From NCBI RefSeq assembly GCF_003334355.1, contig NZ_QOWP01000008.1: a stretch of 64,000 nucleotides of DNA; one strand, given 5' to 3'. The translations under genes were made by a program, and so were the position numbers. Positions 3,142 through 57,030 of the stretch are shown here, in pieces. The notes beneath the pieces were generated by a model that worked only from the letters and a program-made list of their open reading frames with translations, was not told the DNA's origin and made no database searches. The DNA is from Escherichia coli (GTDB taxonomy: Bacteria > Pseudomonadota > Gammaproteobacteria > Enterobacterales > Enterobacteriaceae). The number at the start of each line of letters is the position of its first letter. The first letter of the stretch is position 1.

Positions 3142-3594
3142 ATGATCTGGATAATGCTCGCCACGCTGGCGGTAGTGTTTGTGGTTGGTTTTCGGGTGCT
3201 GACATCCGGGGCCAGAAAAGCGATTCGCCGTCTCAGCGATCGGCTGAACATCGATGTCGTACCCGTGGAGTCGATGGTCGATCAAATGGGAAAGTCAGCT
3301 GGTGACGAATTTTTACGTTATTTGCATCGTCCGGATGAGTCGCACCTGCAAAACGCCGCGCAGGTGTTGCTCATCTGGCAAATTGTCATTGTCGATGGTA
3401 GCGAACAGAACCTGCTGCAATGGCATCGGATTTTACAAAAAGCTCGCCTCGCCGCGCCGATTACCGACGCTCAGGTCAGGCTGGCGCTAGGTTTTCTGCG
3501 CGAAACCGAACCTGAAATGCAGGATATTAATGCTTTTCAGATGCGCTATAACGCGTTCTTTCAGCCTGCCGAGGGCGTTCACTGGTTGCATTGA
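3142..3594 (+). CDS. yicN: small inner-membrane protein YicN-like, 150 aa
   Basis: ORF 3115..3594; start placed at MIWIMLATLAVVFVVGF (ATG 3142); one N-terminal hydrophobic helix. Confidence 0.55.
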   Translation: MIWIMLATLAVVFVVGFRVLTSGARKAIRRLSDRLNIDVVPVESMVDQMGKSAGDEFLRYLHRPDESHLQNAAQVLLIWQIVIVDGSEQNLLQWHRILQKARLAAPITDAQVRLALGFLRETEPEMQDINAFQMRYNAFFQPAEGVHWLH

Positions 3595-3602
3595 AACCGT
3601 TT

Positions 3603-3670
3603 CGTCTTATCAGCCTACAGACCGCGCCTGACCTGTCGGGTGGATAAGACGTTCACGCCGCATCCGGTAA
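3603..3670. repeat. REP/BIME-type extragenic palindromic repeat
   Basis: cgtcttatc (3603-3611) inverted with gataagacg (3643-3651); 3641-3670 is reverse complement of a REP-like unit (accggatgcggcgtgaacgtcttatcc). Confidence 0.55.
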
Positions 3671-3804
3671 TCTTTGCCCTGTTCCGTTTCGATCTTAACT
3701 CCAGCTCAAGCAACACCGTAAAAGTTGCAAAAACGTTAAATGCGTCACACATTTCAATGTTAAAGTGGTCGGCTTTTCCCCTGAAACATGCCACGGGTAA
3801 CACC

Positions 3805-4995
3805 ATGAGTGAATTTATTGCCGAAAACCGCGGCGCGGATGCCATCACCCGACCGAACTGGTCAGCCGTTTTCTCGGTGGCGTTTTGTGTCGCCTGTCTG
3901 ATTATCGTTGAGTTTTTGCCCGTCAGTTTGTTGACGCCAATGGCCCAGGATTTAGGCATTTCGGAAGGGGTTGCCGGGCAATCGGTGACCGTGACCGCCT
4001 TTGTGGCAATGTTTGCCAGTTTGTTTATTACCCAGACAATTCAGGCTACTGACCGCCGCTACGTTGTTATTTTGTTTGCCGTTTTGCTGACGCTCTCCTG
4101 CTTGCTGGTTTCCTTTGCTAACTCATTCAGTTTGCTTTTAATCGGTCGTGCCTGTCTGGGGCTGGCGCTGGGCGGGTTCTGGGCGATGTCGGCGTCGCTG
4201 ACCATGCGTCTGGTGCCGCCGCGTACGGTGCCGAAGGCGCTGTCGGTGATCTTCGGCGCGGTTTCTATTGCGCTGGTGATTGCCGCGCCGTTGGGCAGTT
4301 TTTTAGGCGAGCTTATCGGTTGGCGCAATGTCTTTAATGCGGCGGCGGTGATGGGCGTGCTGTGTATTTTCTGGATTATCAAATCATTGCCTTCACTGCC
4401 AGGCGAACCCTCGCATCAGAAACAAAATACTTTCCGCTTATTACAACGTCCGGGTGTGATGGCAGGGATGATCGCCATCTTCATGTCTTTCGCCGGGCAG
4501 TTTGCTTTCTTCACGTATATTCGCCCGGTGTATATGAACCTGGCGGGATTCGGCGTGGATGGCTTAACGCTGGTGCTGTTGAGTTTTGGTATCGCCAGCT
4601 TTATTGGTACGTCGCTTTCGTCGTTCATTCTTAAACGTTCGGTAAAACTGGCCTTAGCAGGCGCGCCGTTAATACTGGCTGTGAGTGCGTTGGTACTGAC
4701 GTTGTGGGGAAGCGATAAAATCGTTGCTACCGGCGTGGCGATTATCTGGGGGCTAACTTTTGCATTGGTTCCTGTCGGCTGGTCAACGTGGATCACCCGC
4801 TCGCTGGCCGATCAGGCAGAAAAAGCCGGGTCTATTCAGGTGGCGGTTATTCAGCTTGCTAATACCTGTGGCGCGGCAATCGGCGGTTATGCGCTGGATA
4901 ATATTGGTCTGACTTCGCCGTTGATGTTGTCCGGCACATTGATGTTGCTGACTGCATTGTTGGTTACTGCAAAGGTGAAAATGAAGAAATCCTGA
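3805..4995 (+). CDS. nepI: MFS purine ribonucleoside efflux transporter NepI-like, 396 aa
   Basis: ORF 3640..4995 overextends into the REP element; ATG at 3805 ([19 protein letters not shown]) gives 396 aa; 12-TM MFS-type composition. Confidence 0.7.
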
Positions 4996-8591: not shown

Positions 8592-9227
8592 TCTTCTGAA
8601 TCACCGGGCGAAAAAATATAACTGAGTTACAAATAAGTACCAGTCGAATGAGTATTGTATTAAGAATTTTTGAGTATCGCTGATACAACCAGAAAGCAAT
8701 GCTAGCGCAATATTATAGGGCCAGCAATTGAGATTATTAGCAAAAGCATGTTAAGAATTAATTACTGAATTTATATATTAATTATAGTAAGGCAATGAGC
8801 TATTTTTGATAGTAAAAATAAAACAAGTTGATTTGATATATTAAATGAACAAATTAATCTTGATGGCAGTCTGATTATTGGTGAAGTTTATAGTCAGTTT
8901 TTTTCGCCAGCGGTTAAAGAAATAGAATAGTCGTATAAAAAAGGGTGTTCTGGGGCGAGTAAAACAACATCTTCACCTTAATGGCGATACAGTTGGCTGA
9001 GAGTCAGCAGGGGGGCAAATCACCTGCAAATAAACACGGCGCATACTGGCGTGAATATCGCGGATGCGTTCGAGGACAGAAGAACCGACAGGCGGATTCT
9101 TCAGCCGCTCATCGTCCATCACAAAACCTTAGACCAGGTATTCCTGAAGCCGATTGAATATTGAGCAGTAGAAAATATCTGGATTGACAGTATTACAAGG
9201 GGTTGGAGAACGTCAGGAGAGGCATTT

Positions 9228-9322
9228 TGGCGGAAGATCACAGGAGTCGAACCTGCCCGGGACCGCTGGCGGCCCCAACTGGATTTGAAGTCCAGCCGCC
9301 TCACCGGAGACGACGATCTTCC
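9228..9322 (-). tRNA. selC: tRNA-Sec (selenocysteine tRNA), 95 nt including CCA
   Basis: Reverse complement of 9228-9322 reads GGAAGATCGTCGTCTCCGGTGAGGCGGCTGGACTTCAAATCCAGTTGGGGCCGCCAGCGGTCCCGGGCAGGTTCGACTCCTGTGATCTTCCGCCA, the recalled E. coli selC sequence. Confidence 0.92.
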
Positions 9323-28871: not shown

Positions 28872-28997
28872 AGACGTTCCTGTTTATAAAAGGAGAGGTG
28901 GAAGGATTATAGCCATCGATGCCTTGTCAGGATAGGAATAACCGCCGGAAGTCCGTATAATGCGCAGCCACATTTGTTTCAAGCCGGAGATTTCAAT

Positions 28998-29714
28998 ATG
29001 CGTCCAGCAGGCCGTAGCAATAATCAGGTGCGTCCCGTTACCCTGACTCGTAACTATACAAAACATGCAGAAGGCTCGGTGCTGGTCGAATTTGGCGATA
29101 CCAAAGTGTTGTGTACCGCCTCTATTGAAGAAGGCGTGCCGCGCTTCCTGAAAGGTCAGGGCCAGGGCTGGATCACCGCAGAGTACGGCATGCTGCCACG
29201 TTCTACCCACACCCGTAACGCTCGTGAAGCGGCGAAAGGTAAGCAGGGTGGACGCACAATGGAAATCCAGCGTCTGATCGCCCGTGCTCTTCGCGCGGCA
29301 GTAGATTTGAAAGCGCTGGGTGAGTTCACCATTACGCTGGACTGCGACGTGCTTCAGGCTGATGGTGGCACGCGTACCGCGTCGATTACGGGTGCCTGCG
29401 TGGCGCTGGCAGATGCGCTACAGAAGCTGGTGGAAAACGGCAAGCTGAAAACCAACCCGATGAAAGGGATGGTAGCCGCAGTTTCTGTCGGAATTGTGAA
29501 CGGCGAAGCGGTTTGCGATCTGGAATACGTTGAAGACTCAGCCGCAGAGACCGACATGAACGTAGTGATGACCGAAGACGGGCGCATCATTGAAGTGCAG
29601 GGGACGGCAGAAGGCGAGCCGTTCACCCATGAAGAGTTACTCACCTTGTTGGCGCTGGCCCGAGGGGGAATCGAATCCATTGTAGCGACGCAGAAGGCGG
29701 CGCTGGCAAACTGA
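28998..29714 (+). CDS. rph: ribonuclease PH, full-length 238 aa
   Basis: ORF 28974..29714; start [16 protein letters not shown] (ATG 28998); C-terminus ...[14 protein letters not shown] is intact (not the K-12 rph-1 truncated allele). Confidence 0.9.
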
Positions 29715-29720
29715 TTTTTA

Positions 29721-29747
29721 AGGCGACTGATGAGTCGCCTTTTTTTT
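29721..29747 (+). terminator. pyrE attenuator / rph terminator hairpin
   Basis: aggcgact-gatg-agtcgcct stem-loop followed by TTTTTTT, between the rph stop and the pyrE start. Confidence 0.75.
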
Positions 29748-29779
29748 GTCTGTAGAAAAGTAAGATGAGGAGCGAAGGC

Positions 29780-30421
29780 ATGAAACCATATCAGCGCCAG
29801 TTTATTGAATTTGCGCTTAGCAAGCAGGTGTTAAAGTTTGGCGAGTTTACGCTGAAATCCGGGCGTAAAAGCCCCTATTTCTTCAACGCCGGGCTGTTTA
29901 ATACCGGGCGCGATCTGGCACTGTTAGGCCGTTTTTACGCTGAAGCATTGGTGGATTCCGGCATTGAGTTCGATCTGCTGTTTGGCCCTGCTTACAAAGG
30001 GATCCCGATTGCTACCACAACCGCCGTGGCGCTGGCGGAGCATCATGACCTGGACCTGCCGTACTGCTTTAACCGCAAAGAGGCAAAAGACCACGGTGAA
30101 GGCGGCAATCTGGTCGGTAGCGCGTTACAAGGACGCGTAATGCTGGTGGATGATGTGATCACCGCCGGAACGGCGATTCGCGAGTCGATGGAAATTATTC
30201 AGGCCAATGGCGCGACGCTTGCTGGCGTATTGATTTCGCTTGATCGTCAGGAACGCGGGCGCGGCGAGATTTCGGCGATTCAGGAAGTTGAGCGTGATTA
30301 CAACTGCAAAGTGATCTCTATCATCACCCTGAAAGATCTGATTGCCTACCTGGAAGAGAAGCCAGAAATGGCGGAACATCTGGCGGCGGTTAAAGCCTAT
30401 CGCGAAGAGTTTGGCGTTTAA
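29780..30421 (+). CDS. pyrE: orotate phosphoribosyltransferase, 213 aa
   Basis: ORF 29765..30421; start [23 protein letters not shown]; PRPP-binding motif [13 protein letters not shown]. Confidence 0.9.
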
Positions 30422-30457
30422 AGAAACTCGCCGGATGAAAAGTCATCCGGCGTCATA

Positions 30458-37320: not shown

Positions 37321-37370
37321 CAGTGCGGTATCAGTATTCAGGTAGCTGTTGAGCCTGGGGCGGTAGCGTG
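37321..37370 (+). promoter_or_regulatory. JUMPstart element with ops site (GGCGGTAGCGTG at 37359-37370), RfaH-dependent antitermination signal for the waaQ operon
   Basis: cagtgcggtatcagtattcaggtagctgttgagcctggggcggtagcgtg matches the JUMPstart/ops consensus, about 50 bp upstream of waaQ. Confidence 0.75.
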
Positions 37371-37419: not shown

Positions 37420-38478
37420 GTGGATAAGCCATTTCGAAGAATTTTGCTCATTAAGATGCGTTTTCATGGGGATATGTTATTAACTACTCCCGTCATTAGT
37501 TCGCTGAAAAAAAATTACCCTGACGCAAAAATCGATGTGCTGCTTTATCAGGACACCATCCCGATCCTGTCTGAAAATCCAGAGATTAACGCGCTCTACG
37601 GCATAAAAAATAAAAAAGCAAAAGCCTCAGAAAAAATTGCCAACTTTTTTCATCTCATCAAGGTATTACGTGCCAATAAGTATGACCTTATCGTCAATCT
37701 TACCGATCAATGGATGGTTGCTATACTGGTTCGCTTATTAAATGCCCGTGTGAAAATTTCCCAGGATTATCATCATCGGCAGTCTGCTTTTTGGCGTAAA
37801 AGTTTCACCCATTTGGTGCCGTTGCAGGGTGGAAATGTGGTGGAAAGTAACTTATCCGTGCTGATACCATTGGGACTTGATTCGTTGGTGAAGCAGACAA
37901 CCATGAGTTACCCGCCTGCAAGCTGGAAACGTATGCGTCGCGAACTTGATCACGCTGGTGTTGGACAAAATTATGTGGTTATCCAACCTACGGCGCGGCA
38001 AATCTTCAAATGCTGGGACAACGCCAAGTTTTCCGCTGTGATTGATGCCTTACATGCTCGTGGTTATGAAGTCGTTCTGACGTCCGGCCCAGATAAAGAC
38101 GATCTGGCCTGCGTCAATGAAATTGCGCAGGGATGCCAGACGCCACCAGTAACGGCGCTGGCTGGAAAGGTGACCTTCCCGGAACTTGGTGCGTTAATCG
38201 ATCATGCGCAGCTGTTTATTGGCGTTGATTCCGCACCGGCGCATATTGCCGCTGCAGTTAATACGCCGCTGATATCGCTGTTTGGTGCGACAGACCATAT
38301 TTTCTGGCGTCCCTGGTCAAATAACATGATTCAATTCTGGGCGGGAGATTACCGGGAAATGCCAACGCGCGATCAGCGTGACCGAAATGAGATGTATCTT
38401 TCGGTTATTCCGGCGGCAGATGTCATTGCTGCTGTCGATAAATTACTGCCCTCCTCCACGACAGGTACGTCGTTATGA
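37420..38478 (+). CDS. waaQ: LPS heptosyltransferase III (GT9)
   Basis: ORF track 352 aa; start codon in the track is GTG at 37420 (exact start uncertain); RILLIKMRFHGDMLLTTPVISSLKK heptosyltransferase N-terminus. Confidence 0.8.
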   Translation: MDKPFRRILLIKMRFHGDMLLTTPVISSLKKNYPDAKIDVLLYQDTIPILSENPEINALYGIKNKKAKASEKIANFFHLIKVLRANKYDLIVNLTDQWMVAILVRLLNARVKISQDYHHRQSAFWRKSFTHLVPLQGGNVVESNLSVLIPLGLDSLVKQTTMSYPPASWKRMRRELDHAGVGQNYVVIQPTARQIFKCWDNAKFSAVIDALHARGYEVVLTSGPDKDDLACVNEIAQGCQTPPVTALAGKVTFPELGALIDHAQLFIGVDSAPAHIAAAVNTPLISLFGATDHIFWRPWSNNMIQFWAGDYREMPTRDQRDRNEMYLSVIPAADVIAAVDKLLPSSTTGTSL

Positions 38479-39599
38479 TCGTTGCTTTTTGTTTATATAA
38501 ATATTTTCCCTTTGGCGGTTTGCAGCGCGATTTTATGCGTATTGCTCAGACAGTCGCCGCCCGAGGTCATCATGTTCGGGTTTATACCCAGTCGTGGGAA
38601 GGCGAATGCCCTGATGTATTTGAACTGATCAAAGTACCGGTTAAATCGCATACCAATCACGGGCGCAATGCGGAGTATTTTGCCTGGGTGCAAAAACATT
38701 TACGCGAACATCCCGTCGATAAAGTCGTTGGATTCAACAAAATGCCGGGGCTGGACGTTTATTATGCCGCTGATGTTTGTTATGCCGAGAAAGTAGCGCA
38801 GGAGAAAGGCTTTTTCTATCGCCTGACGTCACGTTATCGCCATTATGCCGCCTTTGAGCGGGCAACCTTCGAACAGGGTAAGCCGACACAGCTGCTGATG
38901 CTGACAGATAAGCAAATCGCCGATTTCCAGAAACATTATCAGACTGAAGCGGAGCGTTTTCATATTCTGCCACCGGGGATTTATCCTGATCGTAAATATA
39001 GCCAGCAGCCAGCCAATAGCCGTGAAATCTTCCGTAAGAAGAATGGAATAACCGAACAACAATATTTATTGTTGCAGGTCGGTTCAGACTTCACGCGTAA
39101 AGGTGTCGATCGTTCCATTGAAGCACTTGCTTCGTTACCGGATTCGCTGCGCCACAACACATTGCTATATGTTGTTGGGCAGGATAAACCGCGAAAATTT
39201 GAGGCACTGGCAGAAAAACGCGGCGTGCGCAGTAATGTTCACTTCTTCTCGGGGCGCAACGATGTCTCGGAATTAATGGCGGCGGCGGATTTATTACTGC
39301 ATCCTGCCTACCAGGAAGCGGCGGGAATTGTGCTGCTGGAAGCGATTACTGCAGGATTACCGGTACTAACAACAGCCGTTTGTGGCTATGCGCATTATAT
39401 TGTCGAGGCCAATTGCGGCGAGGCTATTGTTGAGCCATTCCGCCAGGAAACATTGAATGAGATTTTACGCAAAGCGTTAACGCAATCTTCATTGCGCCAG
39501 GCCTGGGCGGAAAATGCGCGACATTATGCTGATACACAAGATTTATACAGTCTGCCAGAGAAAGCGGCGGATATCATAACGGGTGGTCTGGATGGTTGA
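38475..39599 (+). CDS. waaG: LPS core alpha-1,3-glucosyltransferase I (GT4), 374 aa
   Basis: 374 aa; [24 protein letters not shown]; 4-bp overlap with the waaQ stop. Confidence 0.85.
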
Positions 39600-40389
39600 A
39601 CTTAAAGAGCCGTTTGCCACGTTATGGCGCGGCAAAGATCCTTTTGAGGAAGTTAAAACCTTGCAGGGTGAGGTATTTCGTGAACTGGAAACTCGCCGTA
39701 CTCTGCGCTTTGAAATGGCGGGCAAAAGCTATTTTCTCAAATGGCATCGCGGCACGACCCTGAAAGAGATAATCAAAAATTTACTCTCATTGCGGATGCC
39801 AGTATTAGGCGCTGACCGCGAATGGAATGCGATTCATCGACTGCGGGATGTCGGCGTTGATACTATGTATGGGGTGGCATTTGGCGAAAAAGGCATGAAT
39901 CCGCTGACCAGAACTTCATTTATTATTACCGAAGATCTGACACCAACCATAAGTCTGGAAGATTACTGTGCTGACTGGGCGACTAACCCTCCAGATGTTC
40001 GCGTAAAGCGTATGCTTATTAAGCGTGTCGCGACGATGGTGCGCGATATGCATGCTGCGGGCATTAACCACCGTGACTGTTATATCTGTCATTTCCTGCT
40101 GCACTTGCCTTTTTCCGGTAAGGAAGAGGAGTTAAAAATTTCGGTAATTGACCTGCACCGGGCGCAGCTTCGCACGCGCGTTCCACGTCGTTGGCGGGAT
40201 AAAGATCTTATTGGGCTTTATTTTTCTTCGATGAATATCGACCTGACTCAGCGGGATATCTGGCGGTTTATGAAAGTGTATTTTGCCGCCCCGCTTAAAG
40301 ACATTCTCAAGCAGGAACAAGGACTGCTGTCGCAAGCAGAAGCAAAAGCCACAAAAATCAGGGAAAGAACGATTCGAAAATCGTTGTAA
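39592..40389 (+). CDS. waaP: LPS core heptose(I) kinase, 265 aa
   Basis: ORF 39583..40389; start [21 protein letters not shown]; kinase-like HRDCYICH motif. Confidence 0.85.
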
Positions 40390-40404
40390 TTTCCGGAGAG
40401 AAAT

Positions 40405-41421
40405 ATGAGTGCCCACTATTTTAATCCACAAGAGATGATCACTAAGACAATCATCTTCGATGAAAGGCCAGCGGCGTCAGTGGCATCATCATTCCATGTT
40501 GCTTATGGCATTGATAAAAACTTTCTTTTTGGTTGTGGTGTTTCAATCACGTCAGTTTTGTTACATAACAACGACGTGAGTTTTGTTTTCCACGTTTTTA
40601 TTGATGATATCCCTGAAGCCGATATCCAGCGTTTAGCCCAATTGGCGAAAAGCTATCGTACCTGTATCCAGATCCATCTGGTAAATTGTGAACGGCTTAA
40701 GGCATTACCGACGACCAAAAATTGGTCTATTGCCATGTATTTCCGTTTTGTAATTGCAGATTACTTTATTGATCAACAAGATAAGGTTCTTTACCTGGAT
40801 GCTGATATCGCCTGTCAGGGAAACTTAAAGCCGCTGATAACAATGGATCTTGCCAATAACATTGCTGCTGTTGTTACTGAACGCGATGCTAACTGGTGGT
40901 CGTTACGGGGTCAAAGTCTGCAGTGTAATGAACTTGAAAAGGGTTACTTTAATTCAGGTGTCCTGTTAATTAATACACTAGCGTGGGCGCAGGAGTCCGT
41001 TTCTGCTAAAGCGATGTCGATGCTTGCTGATAAAGCCGTCGTTTCCCGTTTAACCTATATGGATCAAGATATACTTAATCTTATCCTGTCAGGGAAAGTT
41101 AAATTCATTGATGCTAAATACAATACGCAATTTAGTTTAAATTATGAATTAAAAAAATCATTTGTTTGTCCAATTAATGATGAAACCGTATTAATTCATT
41201 ATGTCGGCCCGACAAAACCCTGGCATTACTGGGCCGGTTATCCAAGTGCGCGACCTTTTATCAAAGCCAAAGAGGCATCGCCCTGGAAAAATGAACCGTT
41301 AATGCGGCCAGTTAACTCAAACTATGCTCGTTATTGCGCCAAGCATAATTTTAAACAAAATAAACCAATTAACGGGATAATGAATTATATTTATTATTTT
41401 TATTTAAAGATAATAAAATGA
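40405..41421 (+). CDS. waaO: family-8 LPS alpha-1,3-glucosyltransferase (WaaO/WaaI type), 338 aa
   Basis: GT8 signatures (YGIDKNFLFG, LYLDADI, NSGVLLIN); first outer-core gene after waaP; symbol assigned by position in an R1/R4-type order. Confidence 0.65.
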   Translation: MSAHYFNPQEMITKTIIFDERPAASVASSFHVAYGIDKNFLFGCGVSITSVLLHNNDVSFVFHVFIDDIPEADIQRLAQLAKSYRTCIQIHLVNCERLKALPTTKNWSIAMYFRFVIADYFIDQQDKVLYLDADIACQGNLKPLITMDLANNIAAVVTERDANWWSLRGQSLQCNELEKGYFNSGVLLINTLAWAQESVSAKAMSMLADKAVVSRLTYMDQDILNLILSGKVKFIDAKYNTQFSLNYELKKSFVCPINDETVLIHYVGPTKPWHYWAGYPSARPFIKAKEASPWKNEPLMRPVNSNYARYCAKHNFKQNKPINGIMNYIYYFYLKIIK

Positions 41422-41437
41422 AATTGAGAAAAGTTAA

Positions 41438-42433
41438 ATGAATGAATTTATAAAAGAACGGTTTTCGTATTTAGCAGATAATAAAAAAGAAAACGCCCCA
41501 GAGCTAAATGTTTCCTACGGTATCGATAAGAATTTTTTGTATGGTGCTGGCGTTTCAATTTCTTCCGTTTTGATTAATAATTCAGATATTAATTTTGTCT
41601 TTCATGTTTTCACTGATTATGTGGATGATGATTATTTAAAGTCATTTAATGAAACAGCAAAACAATTTAATACCTCAATTATTGTATATTTAATTGACCC
41701 CAAATACTTTGCTGATCTGCCGACGTCACAGTTTTGGTCGTACGCGACATACTTCAGGGTATTGTCTTTTGAATATCTGAGTGAAAGTATTTCCACACTG
41801 CTGTATCTGGATGCCGATGTTGTTTGTAAAGGAAGCCTGAAACCTCTCACAGAAATTATATTTAAAGATGAGTTTGCTGCGGTCATTCCTGACAATGATA
41901 GTACGCAGGCGGCATGTGCAAAACGCCTCAACATTCCCGAAATGAATGGACGTTATTTCAATGCAGGCGTTATCTATGTCAATCTTAAAAAATGGCATGA
42001 AGCAAATTTGACACCGTATTTACTCAAGCTTTTACGAGGGGAAACTAAATATGGCTCTCTTAAATATTTAGATCAGGATGCGTTGAATATCGCATTTAAT
42101 ATGAATAATATCTACCTCGGGAAGGATTTTGATACTATTTATACCCTGAAAAATGAACTTCATGATCGTAGTCATCGAAAGTTTCAGCAAACCATTACCG
42201 ATAAAACAGTATTGATTCACTATACAGGGATAACTAAACCATGGCATAGCTGGGCTGGATATCCGTCTGCATCATACTTTAATATCGCGCGTGAACAATC
42301 TCCCTGGAAGAAATATCCTCTTAAAGAGGCGCGGACTGTTGCAGAAATGCAGAAACAATATAAGCATCTGTTTGCCCATGGTGAGTATATAAAAGGCATA
42401 ACTTCATTAATTAAGTACAAGCTTAAGAAATAA
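41438..42433 (+). CDS. waaT: family-8 LPS alpha-1,2-glycosyltransferase (WaaT/WaaJ type), 331 aa
   Basis: GT8 signatures (YGIDKNFLYG, LYLDADVVCKGSL, NAGVIYVN); paralogous to the ORF at 43161; symbol by position. Confidence 0.55.
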   Translation: MNEFIKERFSYLADNKKENAPELNVSYGIDKNFLYGAGVSISSVLINNSDINFVFHVFTDYVDDDYLKSFNETAKQFNTSIIVYLIDPKYFADLPTSQFWSYATYFRVLSFEYLSESISTLLYLDADVVCKGSLKPLTEIIFKDEFAAVIPDNDSTQAACAKRLNIPEMNGRYFNAGVIYVNLKKWHEANLTPYLLKLLRGETKYGSLKYLDQDALNIAFNMNNIYLGKDFDTIYTLKNELHDRSHRKFQQTITDKTVLIHYTGITKPWHSWAGYPSASYFNIAREQSPWKKYPLKEARTVAEMQKQYKHLFAHGEYIKGITSLIKYKLKK

Positions 42434-42442
42434 ATTACTCTT

Positions 42443-43135
42443 ATGATTACAAGTATACGTTATCGCGGCTTCTCATTTTATTACAAAGATAATGATAATA
42501 AATATAAAGAAATCTTTGATGAAATACTGGCCTATAATTTTAAAACAGTAAAAGTATTACGTAATATTGATGATACCAAAGTATCGTTGATTGATACGAA
42601 ATATGGTCGCTATGTTTTTAAAGTCTTTGCTCCGAAAACGAAAAGGAATGAACGTTTTTTAAAATCTTTTGTAAAAGGTGACTACTATCAGAATTTGATC
42701 GTTGAAACCGATCGTGTCAGAAGTGCAGGTCTTACTTTTCCTAATGATTTTTATTTTCTGGCTGAGCGTAAAATTTTCAACTATGCCAGTGTTTTTATCA
42801 TGCTTATCGAGTATGTCGAGGGCGTAGAGCTCAATGATATGCCGATTATTCCAGAAAATGTTAAAGCAGAAATTAAGGCTTCAATGGAAAAATTGCATGC
42901 CTTAAATATGCTATCGGGCGACCCACACCGGGGTAATTTTATCGTTAGTAAAGATGGTGTCAGGATAATTGACCTATCCGGTAAAAGCTGTACGGCAGAG
43001 CGTAAAGCTCGTGATCGTCTGGCCATGGAACGTCACCTGGGTATTGCCAACGAAATAAAAGATTATGGCTACTATTCAGTAATCTACAGAACCAAACTAC
43101 GCAAATTTATTAAAAAATTAAAAGGCAAAGCGTAA
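42443..43135 (+). CDS. waaY: LPS core heptose(II) kinase WaaY, 230 aa
   Basis: MITSIRYRGFSFYYKDNDNKYKEIFDEILAYNFKTVKVLRN; kinase-like, AT-rich. Confidence 0.75.
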   Translation: MITSIRYRGFSFYYKDNDNKYKEIFDEILAYNFKTVKVLRNIDDTKVSLIDTKYGRYVFKVFAPKTKRNERFLKSFVKGDYYQNLIVETDRVRSAGLTFPNDFYFLAERKIFNYASVFIMLIEYVEGVELNDMPIIPENVKAEIKASMEKLHALNMLSGDPHRGNFIVSKDGVRIIDLSGKSCTAERKARDRLAMERHLGIANEIKDYGYYSVIYRTKLRKFIKKLKGKA

Positions 43136-43160
43136 ACCACACAGTCAAAACGGAACCAAC

Positions 43161-44189
43161 ATGGATTTATTAGCTGAGAGTATTTCTGAAGTCGCTGTCT
43201 CTGGGGAAATTGCTAACACCGATCGTGTGTTAAATATCGCTTACGGTATTGACCGTAACTTTTTATTTGGTGCGGCAGTATCTATGCAATCAGTTGTTAT
43301 GCATAACCCGGACCTTGCGGTTAAGTTTCATCTCTTTACCGACTACATTGATGAAGATTATCTACAACGTGTTAATGCTTTTACCAGCAAAAATGCTAAC
43401 GTTGAAGTAAGAATTTATAAAGTCTCCAATGCCTTTATTGATATCTTCCCCAGCCTGAAACAGTGGTCTTATGCAACATTCTTCCGTTTAGTTGCGTTCC
43501 AGTATCTGAGTGAAACTATTGAAAATCTGTTATATATCGATGCTGATGTCATCTGTAAAGGCTCATTAGCTGGATTGCTTGATATTAATTTTGATGGGGA
43601 TAAGTTTGCAGCTGTTATTAAAGATGTGCCTTTTATGCAGGAAAAACCAGCGAAGCGTCTGGCTATAGAGGGACTTCCAGGGAATTATTTCAACGCCGGT
43701 GTAGTATATCTGCAGCTTGAAGCATGGGCGAAAAATGATTTTATGAATAAAGCCATTGCTATGCTGGCAAGTGACCCGCAGCACACGAAGTATAAATGCC
43801 TTGATCAGGATATTTTAAATATTCTGTTTTTTGGTCATTGTATTTTTATTAGCGGCGATTATGATTGCTTTTATGGCATCGATTATGAGTTAAAAAATAA
43901 AAGCGATGAAGATTATAAAAAGACCATTACCGATGATACTAAGCTGATTCATTATGTTGGCGTAACGAAGCCCTGGAACGACTGGACGAATTATCCCTGC
44001 CAGAACTATTTTAATGAGGCTTATCAGGCTTCTTGCTGGAATGATGTGGCGTTTATTCCAGCCACGAATGAAAAGCAGTATCAAGTGAAATCCAGACATT
44101 TGAAAAGAAATGGTAATATTGCATCTTCATTTTACTATTTCATGCTCTATTATAGTAAGAAAATAGCGCGTAAGCATTTTTCCAAATAA
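43161..44189 (+). CDS. waaW: family-8 LPS alpha-1,2-glycosyltransferase (WaaW/WaaR type), 342 aa
   Basis: GT8 signatures (YGIDRNFLFG, LYIDADVICKGSL, NAGVVYLQ); clear paralog of 41438..42433; symbol by position. Confidence 0.55.
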   Translation: MDLLAESISEVAVSGEIANTDRVLNIAYGIDRNFLFGAAVSMQSVVMHNPDLAVKFHLFTDYIDEDYLQRVNAFTSKNANVEVRIYKVSNAFIDIFPSLKQWSYATFFRLVAFQYLSETIENLLYIDADVICKGSLAGLLDINFDGDKFAAVIKDVPFMQEKPAKRLAIEGLPGNYFNAGVVYLQLEAWAKNDFMNKAIAMLASDPQHTKYKCLDQDILNILFFGHCIFISGDYDCFYGIDYELKNKSDEDYKKTITDDTKLIHYVGVTKPWNDWTNYPCQNYFNEAYQASCWNDVAFIPATNEKQYQVKSRHLKRNGNIASSFYYFMLYYSKKIARKHFSK

Positions 44190-44220
44190 TTATTAAGATT
44201 AATCATCCAGAGATTTTTTA

Positions 44221-44994
44221 ATGAACTTGCCCATTTATATTGTCTCACTTAAAAGAGATATTGAGCGAAGAAATAAAATAAATGATGTTTTTCATCGATT
44301 AAATATTAATTTTGATTTTTTTGATGCCATAGATGCTAAAGACCCTCAAAATAAAGAAATTATTGATAAAATGAGATTAAGTGGTGTCGGCGCAGAAATG
44401 ACTGATGGAGAAATTGCTTGTACATTAAGTCATCAACTTATATATCAGGATATGATAGATAAAAATATAGAATGGGCAGTCATTCTCGAGGATGATGTTA
44501 TCGTCAATGAGAAATTTAAAAAATTTCTGCAATATTTTAATCTTTCTGAAAAAGACAAGTTAAAACATAATAATTTGTATTTGCTTGGAGGACAGAAAGG
44601 ATTACATGATTATCCGGTATTGGGGCAAAGCCTTTTTAGTAAAGTTAAGGTAAGTACTTGTACTTTTCGGCGTGTTAATTTCAATAAAAATAAAATTCGG
44701 CGTACATGTTCATATTTGATGAATAAAGATATGGCACAAAAGTTGCTCAAATTGACAAAGGATTATGGCACCTATCGAGCTGATAGCTGGAAGTTAATGC
44801 ATCAACATAATATTATAAAAGAGTTTTATTTAGACGAAATAATATTACATCCTATTTTAAATGAGTTTAATAGTCATCTTGAAAGTGAAAGGCTATTAAC
44901 ATCGGAAAAAAAACAACCTAGAACAAGGCTTCAGAAAAGAATGAAGTTTATACGCTCCTGGATAAAGGTGGCTTTTTTTTCTCTTTTGAAATGA
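44221..44994 (+). CDS. family-25 LPS beta-glycosyltransferase (Lic2A/LgtB-like); candidate WaaX-type beta-1,4-galactosyltransferase, 257 aa
   Basis: N-terminal IYIVSLKRDIERR...FDFFDAIDAKDP and downstream ILEDDVIV resemble GT25 (Lic2A/LgtB) proteins; sits at the waaV/waaX position immediately before waaL. Confidence 0.55.
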   Translation: MNLPIYIVSLKRDIERRNKINDVFHRLNINFDFFDAIDAKDPQNKEIIDKMRLSGVGAEMTDGEIACTLSHQLIYQDMIDKNIEWAVILEDDVIVNEKFKKFLQYFNLSEKDKLKHNNLYLLGGQKGLHDYPVLGQSLFSKVKVSTCTFRRVNFNKNKIRRTCSYLMNKDMAQKLLKLTKDYGTYRADSWKLMHQHNIIKEFYLDEIILHPILNEFNSHLESERLLTSEKKQPRTRLQKRMKFIRSWIKVAFFSLLK

Positions 44995-45028
44995 GATTGT
45001 TAATTTCAATTTGTTGTGAGATATTAAC

Positions 45029-46282
45029 GTGGAAGTAAAAATTGAGCAATTTCGAAATAATAGCTGTAATTTTATTTTTTTATTGTATTTAATCGGTTTG
45101 TTGTTTGTGCCAATTGATCTTAATATCACCACTAAAATAATTAATGCGACAGGTGCATTTTCTCTTTTCTTATTAATTGTAAATAAAAAGCATAATTATA
45201 ATAAAAATGTCATTATATTAATTCTTGGTTTACTTCTTTTGGGTGCAATGAACCTGATATGGTATGAATTTTATAAAACAGAAGATGTAGTATATAGAAA
45301 TGCTTATCGAGGCTACCTTGAGTCTGGAAAACTATTAGTATTTAGCTCGTTGACATTTTTATTACTAAGTAAAAATAAATTCAGGCAAAATGAAAAACTA
45401 CATTTTATTTCAGCCATCTTAGTTCAAATAATCATGCTATGTAGAGCATATTATCAAGGGATATATTTGCATGCAGACCGCATTCCCCTCTCCGCCATGA
45501 ATGGGAATATTGGTCAAATGGGGGCAGCGACTATTGCGGCTTATGTGATTACATTCACCACTTTATATTCTTCAATTGTATTCATCAAAATGCAATCGAA
45601 ATATAAATGGTTTCTATTTTATGCTAACTTTGCTTTAAGTTTTGCTGCAGTAACAATGACTGGCACTAGGGCGGCGATTTTTACATTCCCACTAATGATT
45701 ATGGTTATTTTATTAATACAATATCGTAATCAGAGAGTGTTTTTATTTAAAGGATTGAGTGGTTTCTTTTTTTTATTTCTAGTATGCGGATTAATATTCA
45801 ATAAGGGAATTGAAAGACGGATCAACGCATTACAAACAGATGTGATTTCCTATACTACAAAAAATAATAGCAATTCATCAGTAGGTGCGCGGTTTGCTAT
45901 GGTTAATGCAGGTATTAAGGGTAGTCCCGATACTTTAGGATGGCAATCCCTTGAAGAGCGAGCCAAAAAGATAAAAGCTTTAAGTTTAGATAATAATATT
46001 TATAATAGTGTTCTTCCTTTTCTGGATGTACATATGCATAACGAAATTGTGGAATCTCTTTCCACGAAAGGAAAAATTGGTCTTCTTGTTCTTATTATGT
46101 TCTATGTTGCAATGATCTATTACTGTATCCGGGAGAAAAAATATATACTCTTGGTTTTCCCTGCTTCTATTATGTTATTTGGCATTAGTGATGTCATTAC
46201 ACATGCTAAACCAATACCGGCATCGTGGATTGTGTGCCTCTTCCTGTCTACATCGTTTTTGAGTAAAAAAGAACCACAATAA
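45029..46282 (+). CDS. waaL: O-antigen ligase, 417 aa polytopic membrane protein
   Basis: About 10-12 predicted TM helices, very AT-rich, last gene of the waaQ-direction operon; GTG start in track (exact start uncertain). Confidence 0.65.
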   Translation: MEVKIEQFRNNSCNFIFLLYLIGLLFVPIDLNITTKIINATGAFSLFLLIVNKKHNYNKNVIILILGLLLLGAMNLIWYEFYKTEDVVYRNAYRGYLESGKLLVFSSLTFLLLSKNKFRQNEKLHFISAILVQIIMLCRAYYQGIYLHADRIPLSAMNGNIGQMGAATIAAYVITFTTLYSSIVFIKMQSKYKWFLFYANFALSFAAVTMTGTRAAIFTFPLMIMVILLIQYRNQRVFLFKGLSGFFFLFLVCGLIFNKGIERRINALQTDVISYTTKNNSNSSVGARFAMVNAGIKGSPDTLGWQSLEERAKKIKALSLDNNIYNSVLPFLDVHMHNEIVESLSTKGKIGLLVLIMFYVAMIYYCIREKKYILLVFPASIMLFGISDVITHAKPIPASWIVCLFLSTSFLSKKEPQ

Positions 46283-48348: not shown

Positions 48349-49281
48349 TTATGCGTCGCGATTCAGCCAGGCCATGTATTCCGTTACACCTTCAGCAACG
48401 GTTTTGAACGGTTTGTCGTAACCCGCCGCGCGCAGATTCGTCAGATCTGCCTGAGTGAACGCCTGATAGCGGCCTTTCAGTTTATCCGGGAACGGAATGT
48501 ATTCGATCTGGCCTTTCTTGTGATAAGCCAGCGTAGCATCAGCTACAGCCTGGAAGGATTCCGCACGACCAGTACCGAGATTGAAGATGCCGGAAACGCC
48601 ATTTTCCAGGAACCACAGATTCACATCAGCCACGTCGCCCACATAGACGAAGTCGCGTTTGAAGTTCTCGCTACCTTCAAACAGCTTCGGTGATTCACCG
48701 TTGTTAAGCTGGGTGTTGAGATGGAAAGCGACGCTCGCCATGCTGCCTTTATGGCCTTCACGCGGTCCATAAACGTTGAAATAACGGAAGCCAACAATCT
48801 GCGAGTTCGCTTCAGGCAGGATTTGACGAACATATTCATCAAACAGGAATTTTGAGTAACCGTAGACGTTCAACGGTTTTTCGTACTCGCGGGATTCAAT
48901 AAAGTCGGAGGTGCGTCCGCCGTAGGTGGCCGCGGAAGATGCATACAGGAACGGGATTTCGCGCTCCAGACAGTAGTGCAGCAGCTCTTTGGAGTATTGA
49001 TAGTTGTTATCCATCATATACTTGCCATCCCACTCGGTGGTGGAAGAGCATGCGCCTTCGTGGAAAATCGCTTCGACATCGCCGAACTCTTCGCCAGCCA
49101 TAATCTGGATCAGGAAGTCTTCCTTATCCATATAGTCCGCGATATCCAGATCCACCAGGTTCACAAACTTGGTGCCGTCTTTCAGGTTGTCCACCACCAG
49201 AATATCGGTGATGCCTTTATCATTCAGGGCCTTAACGATGTTGCTGCCGATAAAGCCCGCGCCGCCGGTAACGATGATCAT
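48349..49281 (-). CDS. hldD: ADP-L-glycero-D-manno-heptose 6-epimerase, 310 aa
   Basis: [23 protein letters not shown] Rossmann NAD-binding motif; first gene of the hldD-waaF-waaC operon. Confidence 0.9.
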
Positions 49282-49494
49282 AACTGTAACCTTCGAATTA
49301 TGGAGTCAGAGACAATCTCAGACACGAATACTTCTATCATATCACTACACGGCGTTGGCTTCAGCCATTCGCCAAAAGTGAGATTGATGGACGTTATTTA
49401 TCCTGAATTTTGCAGAAGTGTTAACGCGTCATCTCGTCGCGACCTATAAGTTTGGGTAATATGTGCTGGAATTTGCCCTGTCTGGAGAATCGCA

Positions 49495-50691
49495 ATGCGT
49501 GGAGAATTTTATCAGCAGTTAACCAACGATCTGGAAACCGCACGGGCGGAAGGGTTGTTTAAAGAAGAGCGCATTATTACGTCTGCGCAGCAAGCAGATA
49601 TCACTGTGGCTGATGGAAGCCACGTCATTAACTTTTGTGCCAATAACTATCTCGGGCTGGCGAATCATCCGGATCTGATTGCGGCGGCAAAGGCGGGAAT
49701 GGATTCTCACGGTTTCGGCATGGCTTCGGTGCGTTTTATTTGCGGCACTCAGGACAGCCATAAAGAGCTTGAACAAAAACTGGCGGCATTCCTGGGGATG
49801 GAAGATGCGATTCTCTACTCTTCCTGCTTTGATGCTAACGGTGGCCTGTTTGAAACGCTGCTGGGCGCGGAAGACGCCATTATCTCCGACGCACTGAACC
49901 ACGCGTCTATTATTGATGGTGTGCGTCTGTGTAAAGCTAAACGCTATCGCTATGCCAACAACGATATGCAGGAGCTGGAAGCACGTCTGAAAGAAGCGCG
50001 TGAAGCCGGTGCGCATCATGTGTTGATTGCCACCGATGGTGTGTTCTCGATGGACGGCGTGATTGCCAATCTGAAGGGCGTTTGCGATCTGGCAGATAAA
50101 TACGATGCCCTGGTGATGGTAGACGACTCCCACGCGGTCGGTTTTGTCGGTGAAAATGGTCGTGGTTCCCATGAATACTGCGATGTGATGGACCGGGTCG
50201 ATATTATCACCGGTACGCTTGGTAAAGCGCTGGGCGGGGCTTCTGGTGGTTATACCGCGGCGCGCAAAGAAGTGGTTGAGTGGCTGCGCCAGCGTTCTCG
50301 TCCGTATCTGTTCTCCAACTCGCTGGCACCGGCCATTGTTGCCGCTTCTATCAAAGTGCTGGAGATGGTTGAAGCGGGTAGCGAGCTGCGTGACCGTCTG
50401 TGGGCGAACGCGCGTCAGTTCCGTGAGCAAATGTCGGCGGCGGGCTTTACCCTGGCGGGAGCCGATCATGCCATTATTCCGGTCATGCTTGGTGATGCGG
50501 TAGTGGCGCAGAAATTTGCCCGTGAGCTGCAAAAAGAGGGCATTTACGTCACCGGTTTCTTCTATCCGGTCGTTCCGAAAGGTCAGGCGCGTATTCGTAC
50601 CCAGATGTCTGCGGCGCATACCCCTGAGCAAATTACGCGTGCAGTAGAAGCATTCACGCGTATTGGTAAACAACTGGGCGTTATTGCCTGA
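49495..50691 (+). CDS. kbl: 2-amino-3-ketobutyrate CoA ligase (glycine C-acetyltransferase), 398 aa
   Basis: 398 aa PLP-dependent class-II aminotransferase-like; [28 protein letters not shown]. Confidence 0.9.
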
Positions 50692-56786: not shown

Positions 56787-57030
56787 TGCGACAACCTCAT
56801 ACTCAAGAGTCAAAATTTGCGTAATTTTACTACAGCTGAATCGATAAAATAGCCTCTGAAGATCAAAATATACGACCGCTCGCGGCAAGCCGATGCCAGA
56901 TTTGCGCTTTTTTTTCGTCGTGCCCCGCAAAATTGCATTCCAGTTAACGCGCTGGCTGTATTTGCCGCACCGCGCAGGTATACTCCTTTCCTGGTTTTTT
57001 TAATCACTACGTCGGGAGTTGTTACCCCCC

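Follow-up and report, generated by a model that had tools for sequence, protein, structure and literature searches.

At the pyrBI operon of Escherichia coli, transcription is controlled by a leader attenuator at which UTP-sensitive slowing of RNA polymerase, together with a ribosome that follows closely behind, blocks the terminator hairpin. The rph-pyrE operon of the same species uses the same logic, but where pyrBI has a dedicated short leader peptide, the 'leader' of pyrE is a full-size functional gene, rph. Its product, RNase PH, is a phosphorolytic 3'-5' exoribonuclease that trims the 3' ends of tRNAs. Read-through of the rph-pyrE terminator needs tight coupling between polymerase and ribosome (Bonekamp 1984 and Jensen 1993, as summarized in PMC2784333 and PMC11148124). 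When UTP is scarce, RNA polymerase would be slow in a U-rich stretch while the ribosome finishing rph is close behind it; the terminating ribosome would then cover or unwind the 5' arm of the hairpin, so that termination would fail and pyrE would be transcribed. When UTP is plentiful, the polymerase would be ahead of the ribosome, the hairpin would form and transcription would stop. The rph-1 allele, in which this geometry is disturbed, arose in the K-12 strain W1485; K-12 also includes several lineages that are rph+ (PMC11148124, PMC5379014). In the W1485 lineage the loss of one G from a run of five causes translation to stop 29 nt earlier, so that the ribosome never reaches the hairpin; pyrE is under-expressed and RNase PH is inactive.

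Here, a stretch of 64,000 nucleotides of E. coli DNA (the window) was analyzed, in which rph and pyrE both lie on the plus strand and are separated by a spacer of 65 nt that holds a GC-rich hairpin and a T8 tract. We are highly confident that the window comes from a natural E. coli isolate and that its bicistronic rph-pyrE operon has the ordinary wild-type form, with the attenuator between the two genes, and nothing in the window sequence speaks against this reading. The rph gene (28998-29714, +) is an uninterrupted open reading frame of 238 aa, closed by a TGA stop codon (29712-29714, +), and its product has the C-terminus ...QKAALAN. An earlier reading, made from the sequence only (hereafter the sequence-only reading), had described rph as intact, with this length and this C-terminus, and the uninterrupted translation agrees with that description, whereas the MG1655 product has 228 aa. 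Against the NCBIfam RNase PH equivalog TIGR01966, the product scored 380.8 bits (cut-off 141.5), and residues 2-236 matched profile positions 1-235 of 236, that is, from end to end. The two-domain architecture of RNase PH was also present, with PF01138 (RNase_PH) at residues 10-140 (E = 1.7e-30) and PF03725 (RNase_PH_C) at residues 157-222 (E = 1.4e-15). Given these TIGR01966 and Pfam matches, the open reading frame is not a chance one. RefSeq annotates rph at the same coordinates in E. coli PSS-12 (WP_001247093.1). The encoded protein was identical at 236 of 238 residues to the intact RNase PH of the K-12 strain GM4792, the two differences being A138 (V in K-12) and T216 (I in K-12). It retains the intact C-terminal tail that the inactive rph-1 product lacks, and in a comparison of Enterobacterales the C-terminal motif SI[VI]..QKAAL of RNase PH was kept across genera.

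For comparison with K-12, the 1,586-bp span that reaches from the stop codon of yicC to that of slmA (28872-30457) was aligned with MG1655 (NC_000913.3), whose rph is annotated by RefSeq as "truncated RNase PH". The single indel over this span was one extra G in the window, located in the G5 run at the site of the rph-1 deletion (29664-29668, +; GGGGG in the window vs GGGG in MG1655). The sequence-only reading had proposed aligning the rph 3' end with MG1655 and looking for a 1-bp difference, and this is the difference that the alignment returned. In MG1655 the 228-aa product ends ...LARGESNPL* at a TAG equivalent to 29683-29685, which places the stop 29 nt earlier than in the window and ~34 nt before the hairpin. 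The same TAG triplet is present in the window (29683-29685, +), where it lies out of frame ((29683-28998) mod 3 = 1). Thus, the G-run deletion, the premature TAG stop and the 228-aa product that define rph-1 were all looked for in the window, and none was found. In addition to the indel, rph and pyrE together differed from MG1655 by 22 substitutions. Six of these were in rph (2 non-synonymous) and 16 in pyrE, every one of the latter at a third codon position and synonymous; the upstream intergenic region, the leader and the attenuator contained no substitutions.

As homopolymer runs are error-prone, the extra G could be a sequencing or assembly error, in which case the true sequence would be the 4-G frameshift; we regard this as extremely improbable. 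Two short megablast queries, one per allele, were designed so that a run of the other length would give no seed. They were searched against 5,426 complete E. coli genomes, and the 5-G allele was found in 5,251 of them and the 4-G allele in 169. An intact rph is the norm, at ~97% of the complete E. coli genomes. Five G were likewise present in all other Enterobacterales examined in which the codon context was kept, and it is the 5-G frame that gives the C-terminus conserved across genera. Further, the close relatives PSS-12, OW1E2, E41 and MB51 were all identical to the window over the rph G-run region, in line with a genuine run of five.

Of the 169 genomes with the 4-G allele, about 120 were listed, and nearly all of those listed were recognizable K-12 derivatives with K-12-sized chromosomes, including MG1655, W3110, BW25113, J53, HMS174, MFDpir and laboratory-evolution lines. 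The clear non-K-12 exception among the listed carriers was E. coli 2015C-3101, a human stool isolate with a 5.3-Mb genome, the rph of which is marked as frameshifted by RefSeq and the product of which ends GESNPL* as in rph-1. A second listed carrier above K-12 size was PJ-T13 (4.94 Mb). The same 4-G allele with the GESNPL* ending was found in another genus, in Kluyvera genomosp. 3 YDC799. These isolated 4-G calls in 2015C-3101 and YDC799 could equally be homopolymer sequencing errors, a point that lends some weight to the idea of miscalled runs at this site. It seems unlikely, and concerns genomes other than the one analyzed here, that the G5 run is a recurrent slippage site from which variants like rph-1, with low pyrE, occasionally arise in nature.

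The rph stop codon is followed by a T5 run (TTTTT, 29715-29719, +), which fills the interval to the first paired base of the pyrE attenuator hairpin (29720-29741, +). The hairpin reads AAGGCGACT-GATG-AGTCGCCTT and has a loop of 4 nt on a 9-bp stem, in which 5 of the pairs are G-C. It runs into the T8 tract of the intrinsic terminator (29740-29747, +), and A29720 and A29721 are paired with the first two T of this tract. When folded in isolation, the hairpin had a free energy of -14.7 kcal/mol (z = -5.2), which was matched by 0 of 200 shuffles. The sequence-only reading had located an attenuator hairpin at 29721-29747; the hairpin exists, but its start was misplaced by 1 nt and the true start is 29720, the one inaccuracy in what that reading observed. 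The same reading had put the rph stop only a few bp before the attenuator, and the measured gap is 5 nt (29715-29719). The leader and attenuator (29715-29779) were 100% identical to MG1655, and the attenuator of the window is therefore base for base the one that was studied experimentally in K-12. Following the model outlined in PMC2784333, the T5 run would be a candidate for the UTP-sensitive stretch in which RNA polymerase is slow. A second stem, formed between the U-run after the terminator and the pyrE Shine-Dalgarno sequence (29743-29771), was considered and rejected, as it folded no better than shuffles (z = -0.4). A scan of the whole window against Rfam matched only tRNA-Sec and JUMPstart, with no curated entry that represents the pyrE attenuator.

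Downstream of the attenuator, the pyrE gene (29780-30421, +) starts with an ATG at 29780, the position at which the region marked by the sequence-only reading ends, and the ATG is preceded at a distance of 7 nt by the Shine-Dalgarno sequence GAGGAG (29767-29772, +). It encodes an orotate phosphoribosyltransferase of 213 aa (RefSeq WP_000806177.1), which scored 240.6 bits against TIGR00336 (cut-off 106.8). The operon ends where pyrE and slmA converge, at a GC-rich hairpin of 10 bp (30429-30452, assigned to neither strand) that has its T-run on the slmA strand. On the 5' side of rph, the intergenic region 28872-28997 was wholly identical to MG1655. This region contains a perfect TATAAT hexamer (28956-28961, +), 37 nt 5' of the rph ATG, which is a candidate for the -10 element of the rph-pyrE operon promoter. 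A sigma-70 consensus scan called no promoter 5' of rph or in the rph-pyrE spacer; at the TATAAT hexamer none was called because no -35 hexamer reaches 4/6 matches.

A terminator near the stop codon is common to many genes, and the hairpin might accordingly be read as a constitutive terminator of rph, with pyrE transcribed from a promoter of its own and the closeness of stop and stem without regulatory meaning. The outcome of the consensus scan is compatible with this, as the scan places no promoter 5' of rph any more than in the spacer. Nevertheless, we consider a constitutive terminator very unlikely. The sequence is that of the K-12 attenuator, at which translation-coupled, UTP-modulated read-through has been shown experimentally (Bonekamp 1984 and Jensen 1993, as reported in PMC2784333 and PMC11148124), and a stop moved 29 nt upstream, as in rph-1, lowers the expression of pyrE. 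Moreover, laboratory evolution of MG1655 repeatedly selects and fixes an 82-bp deletion that returns the stop to the hairpin (PMC2784333), which independently supports the view that the stop-hairpin distance matters. Conrad et al. saw no measurable rise of pyrE mRNA in their strains with an rph-pyrE deletion (PMC2784333), so the quantitative link between the position of the stop and the level of pyrE is not always clean.

The constitutive terminator also fits poorly with the conservation of the junction across Enterobacterales. With a degenerate DNA pattern for the N-terminus of pyrE, 120 loci were obtained from contigs that represent one genome per species; by title, they were all Enterobacterales except one probable mislabel. 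The 115 loci that extended 330 nt or more upstream were used. In 114 of the 115 species, rph was closely followed by a GC-rich hairpin with perfect pairing and then by a T-run. The first paired base was 2-8 nt from the rph stop in 113 of the 115 species, and in 97 of the 115 this gap was 4 or 5 nt. The length of the rph-pyrE spacer, on the other hand, ranged from 57 to 200 nt, a more than threefold variation. A stop-to-stem gap that is conserved while the remainder of the spacer varies matches the prediction of the coupling model. When pairs were counted outward with the invariant GCG(A/G)C core of the stems as an anchor, 4 positions showed pairing-preserving changes on both sides (A-T to G-C, G-C to A-T, and T-A to G-C or C-G, with G-T intermediates), a count that is partly circular in that the hairpins had been detected by perfect complementarity. 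Unsupervised MAFFT/RNAalifold on 93 distinct stop-to-terminator segments did not recover the stem, because variation in loop length between species misaligned the 3' arm. The two species outside the 2-8 nt range were Kluyvera genomosp. 3 YDC799 and Budvicia diplopodorum, and the latter was the sole species of the 115 without a hairpin and T-run after rph. The spacer of B. diplopodorum is 164 nt long and contains a GGCGAC...GTCGCC pairing with a long loop and no T tract. The cross-species table of stop-to-hairpin distances confirms the accepted attenuation model and is not a discovery; the biology is textbook knowledge, and the present analysis adds nothing new on attenuation itself.

One of the retrieved contigs, titled Chryseobacterium sp. 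18061, carries an enterobacterial rph-pyrE junction whose stop, spacer length, hairpin and tail are those of Citrobacter sp. 18056 from the same project. It is likely to represent contamination or a mislabelled assembly. Variation at the attenuator (equivalent to 29738-29747 of the window) was also encountered in other complete E. coli genomes. In place of the T8 found in the window and MG1655, JNEC-KY202 has T7 and N2512 has T9, and O78 strain 3 has one C fewer in the 3' arm of the hairpin. These length variants could alter the efficiency of termination or could be homopolymer errors. In E. coli 23CRST050, an element of the IS200/IS605 family (tnpA) is located between rph and pyrE, at positions 3240-3960 of the locus, and its insertion point is within or just past the T-tract of the attenuator, equivalent to ~29746 of the window. 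The corresponding BLAST search gave 17 more places than records, and in 18 genomes no place covered at least 80% of the query, which suggests that up to ~18 genomes carry an interruption like that of 23CRST050.

The ribosome has a footprint that extends roughly a dozen nt downstream of its A site. With the TGA at 29712-29714 in the A site, a terminating ribosome should cover the 5' arm (29720-29728) up to about its middle; it would reach this arm because no more than 5 nt separate the rph stop from the stem. For a ribosome that stops at the TAG of rph-1, the distance left to the stem would exceed 20 nt. By extension from the published work on K-12, sensing of UTP and occlusion of the stem by the ribosome would operate in the window as well. 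As the window has the 5-G arrangement, both RNase PH and the regulation of pyrE are expected to be normal. For RNase PH this expectation draws on the literature about the enzyme and its rph-1 form, and for practical purposes RNase PH activity and normal, pyrimidine-regulated expression of pyrE can probably be assumed in the source strain.

The sequence-only reading had also taken the intact rph as an argument against an MG1655- or W3110-derived source. By itself, an intact rph excludes only the W1485-derived branch of K-12 (MG1655, W3110, BW25113, J53 and others). The K-12 strains JM83, JM109 and XL1-Blue are rph+ (PMC11148124), as is RR1 (PMC5379014), and rph of the K-12 strain GM4792 is listed in RefSeq with an intact length of 717 bp. 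Because several K-12 lineages are rph+, the argument from rph needs this caveat. The source could then be a K-12 strain that never carried rph-1 or in which it was repaired (for example, the JM83, DH1 or GM4792 lineages, or an engineered rph+ MG1655), and under such an origin the intact rph would say nothing about a non-laboratory source; the identity of the attenuator and promoter regions to K-12 is what such an origin would give. The chance of this is negligible in our judgment, and a source in an rph+ K-12 strain is effectively refuted already by the two residues at which RNase PH differs, the 22 substitutions in rph-pyrE and the remainder of the window. A 25-kb query (28001-53000) gave a 100.0% match to E. 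coli PSS-12, an isolate from human faeces in Ecuador (NZ_AP027697.1), and over the 64 kb the window differed from this best match by 16 SNPs and one 1-bp indel. In contrast, the left 27.5 kb of the window was only 99.31% identical to MG1655 (188 mismatches), and the right part was 98.2-99.9% identical.

In the waa core cluster, no BLAST match to MG1655 was obtained at ~40.3-46.4 kb. The LPS core genes of the window (37420-46282 and 48349-49495) are arranged as waaQ-waaG-waaP-waaO-GT8-waaY-GT8-GT25-ligase, an order that differs from the waaS-B-O-J-Y-Z-U cluster with htrL of K-12, and htrL is absent from the window between rfaD and kbl. We take this gene order to resemble the R1/R4 core types. 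The window thus has neither the K-12-type waa cluster with htrL nor the near-identity to MG1655 that would characterize a K-12 background. It is the waa cluster and the genome-wide divergence that exclude K-12 of any lineage, for which the rph allele alone is insufficient. The view that the source is not derived from MG1655 or W3110 is consequently upheld on wider grounds, namely the 5-G rph, the non-K-12 waa cluster, the rph-pyrE substitutions and the near-identity to PSS-12. In combination, a 5-G rph and a non-K-12 LPS core serve as a provenance marker for a natural isolate outside the MG1655/W3110/BW25113 family.

Several other features were observed along the window. The sole indel relative to PSS-12 over the 64 kb is in a C run directly 5' of the yibN ATG (57031), which is C6 in the window (57025-57030) and C5 in PSS-12. 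The selC tRNA-Sec gene is on the minus strand (Rfam, 83.8 bits; RefSeq coordinates 9228-9322), and the only thing between selC and setC is a 162-bp fragment of a rhuM-family pseudogene (8988-9149). With only this small remnant beside selC, the integration hot spot is without an island in the window. The corresponding site of K-12 is occupied by the yicT pseudogene. Located 5' of waaQ is a JUMPstart element (37332-37370, +; 55.2 bits against Rfam RF01707), in the same intergenic region, between waaA and waaQ, in which the sRNA RirA is annotated in MG1655.

With respect to the known systems, the encoded protein, the rph-1 allele and the wild-type operon can each be set beside the window. Among the structure matches of the rph product there was no structure of E. 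coli RNase PH. RNase PH of Pseudomonas aeruginosa (PDB 1r6l) aligned with residues 2-237 of the window protein (E = 3.7e-104), and the alignment includes a 10-residue stretch that is the same in both; this protein and RNase PH of Bacillus subtilis (1oyp) are orthologues from other genera. The rph-1 allele of the K-12 strains W1485, MG1655, W3110 and BW25113 has the same locus and the same attenuator as the window, but it has 4 G, its product of 228 aa ends GESNPL, and its stop codon is ~34 nt away from the hairpin; the window has none of these features. The wild-type rph-pyrE operon of E. coli (orfE-pyrE; Poulsen 1984, Bonekamp 1984, Jensen 1993) matches the window in gene order, in the 65-nt spacer, and in the hairpin, the T8 tract and the leader. 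Between this operon and the window no functional differences are expected, and the sequence divergence from K-12 amounts to the 22 substitutions.
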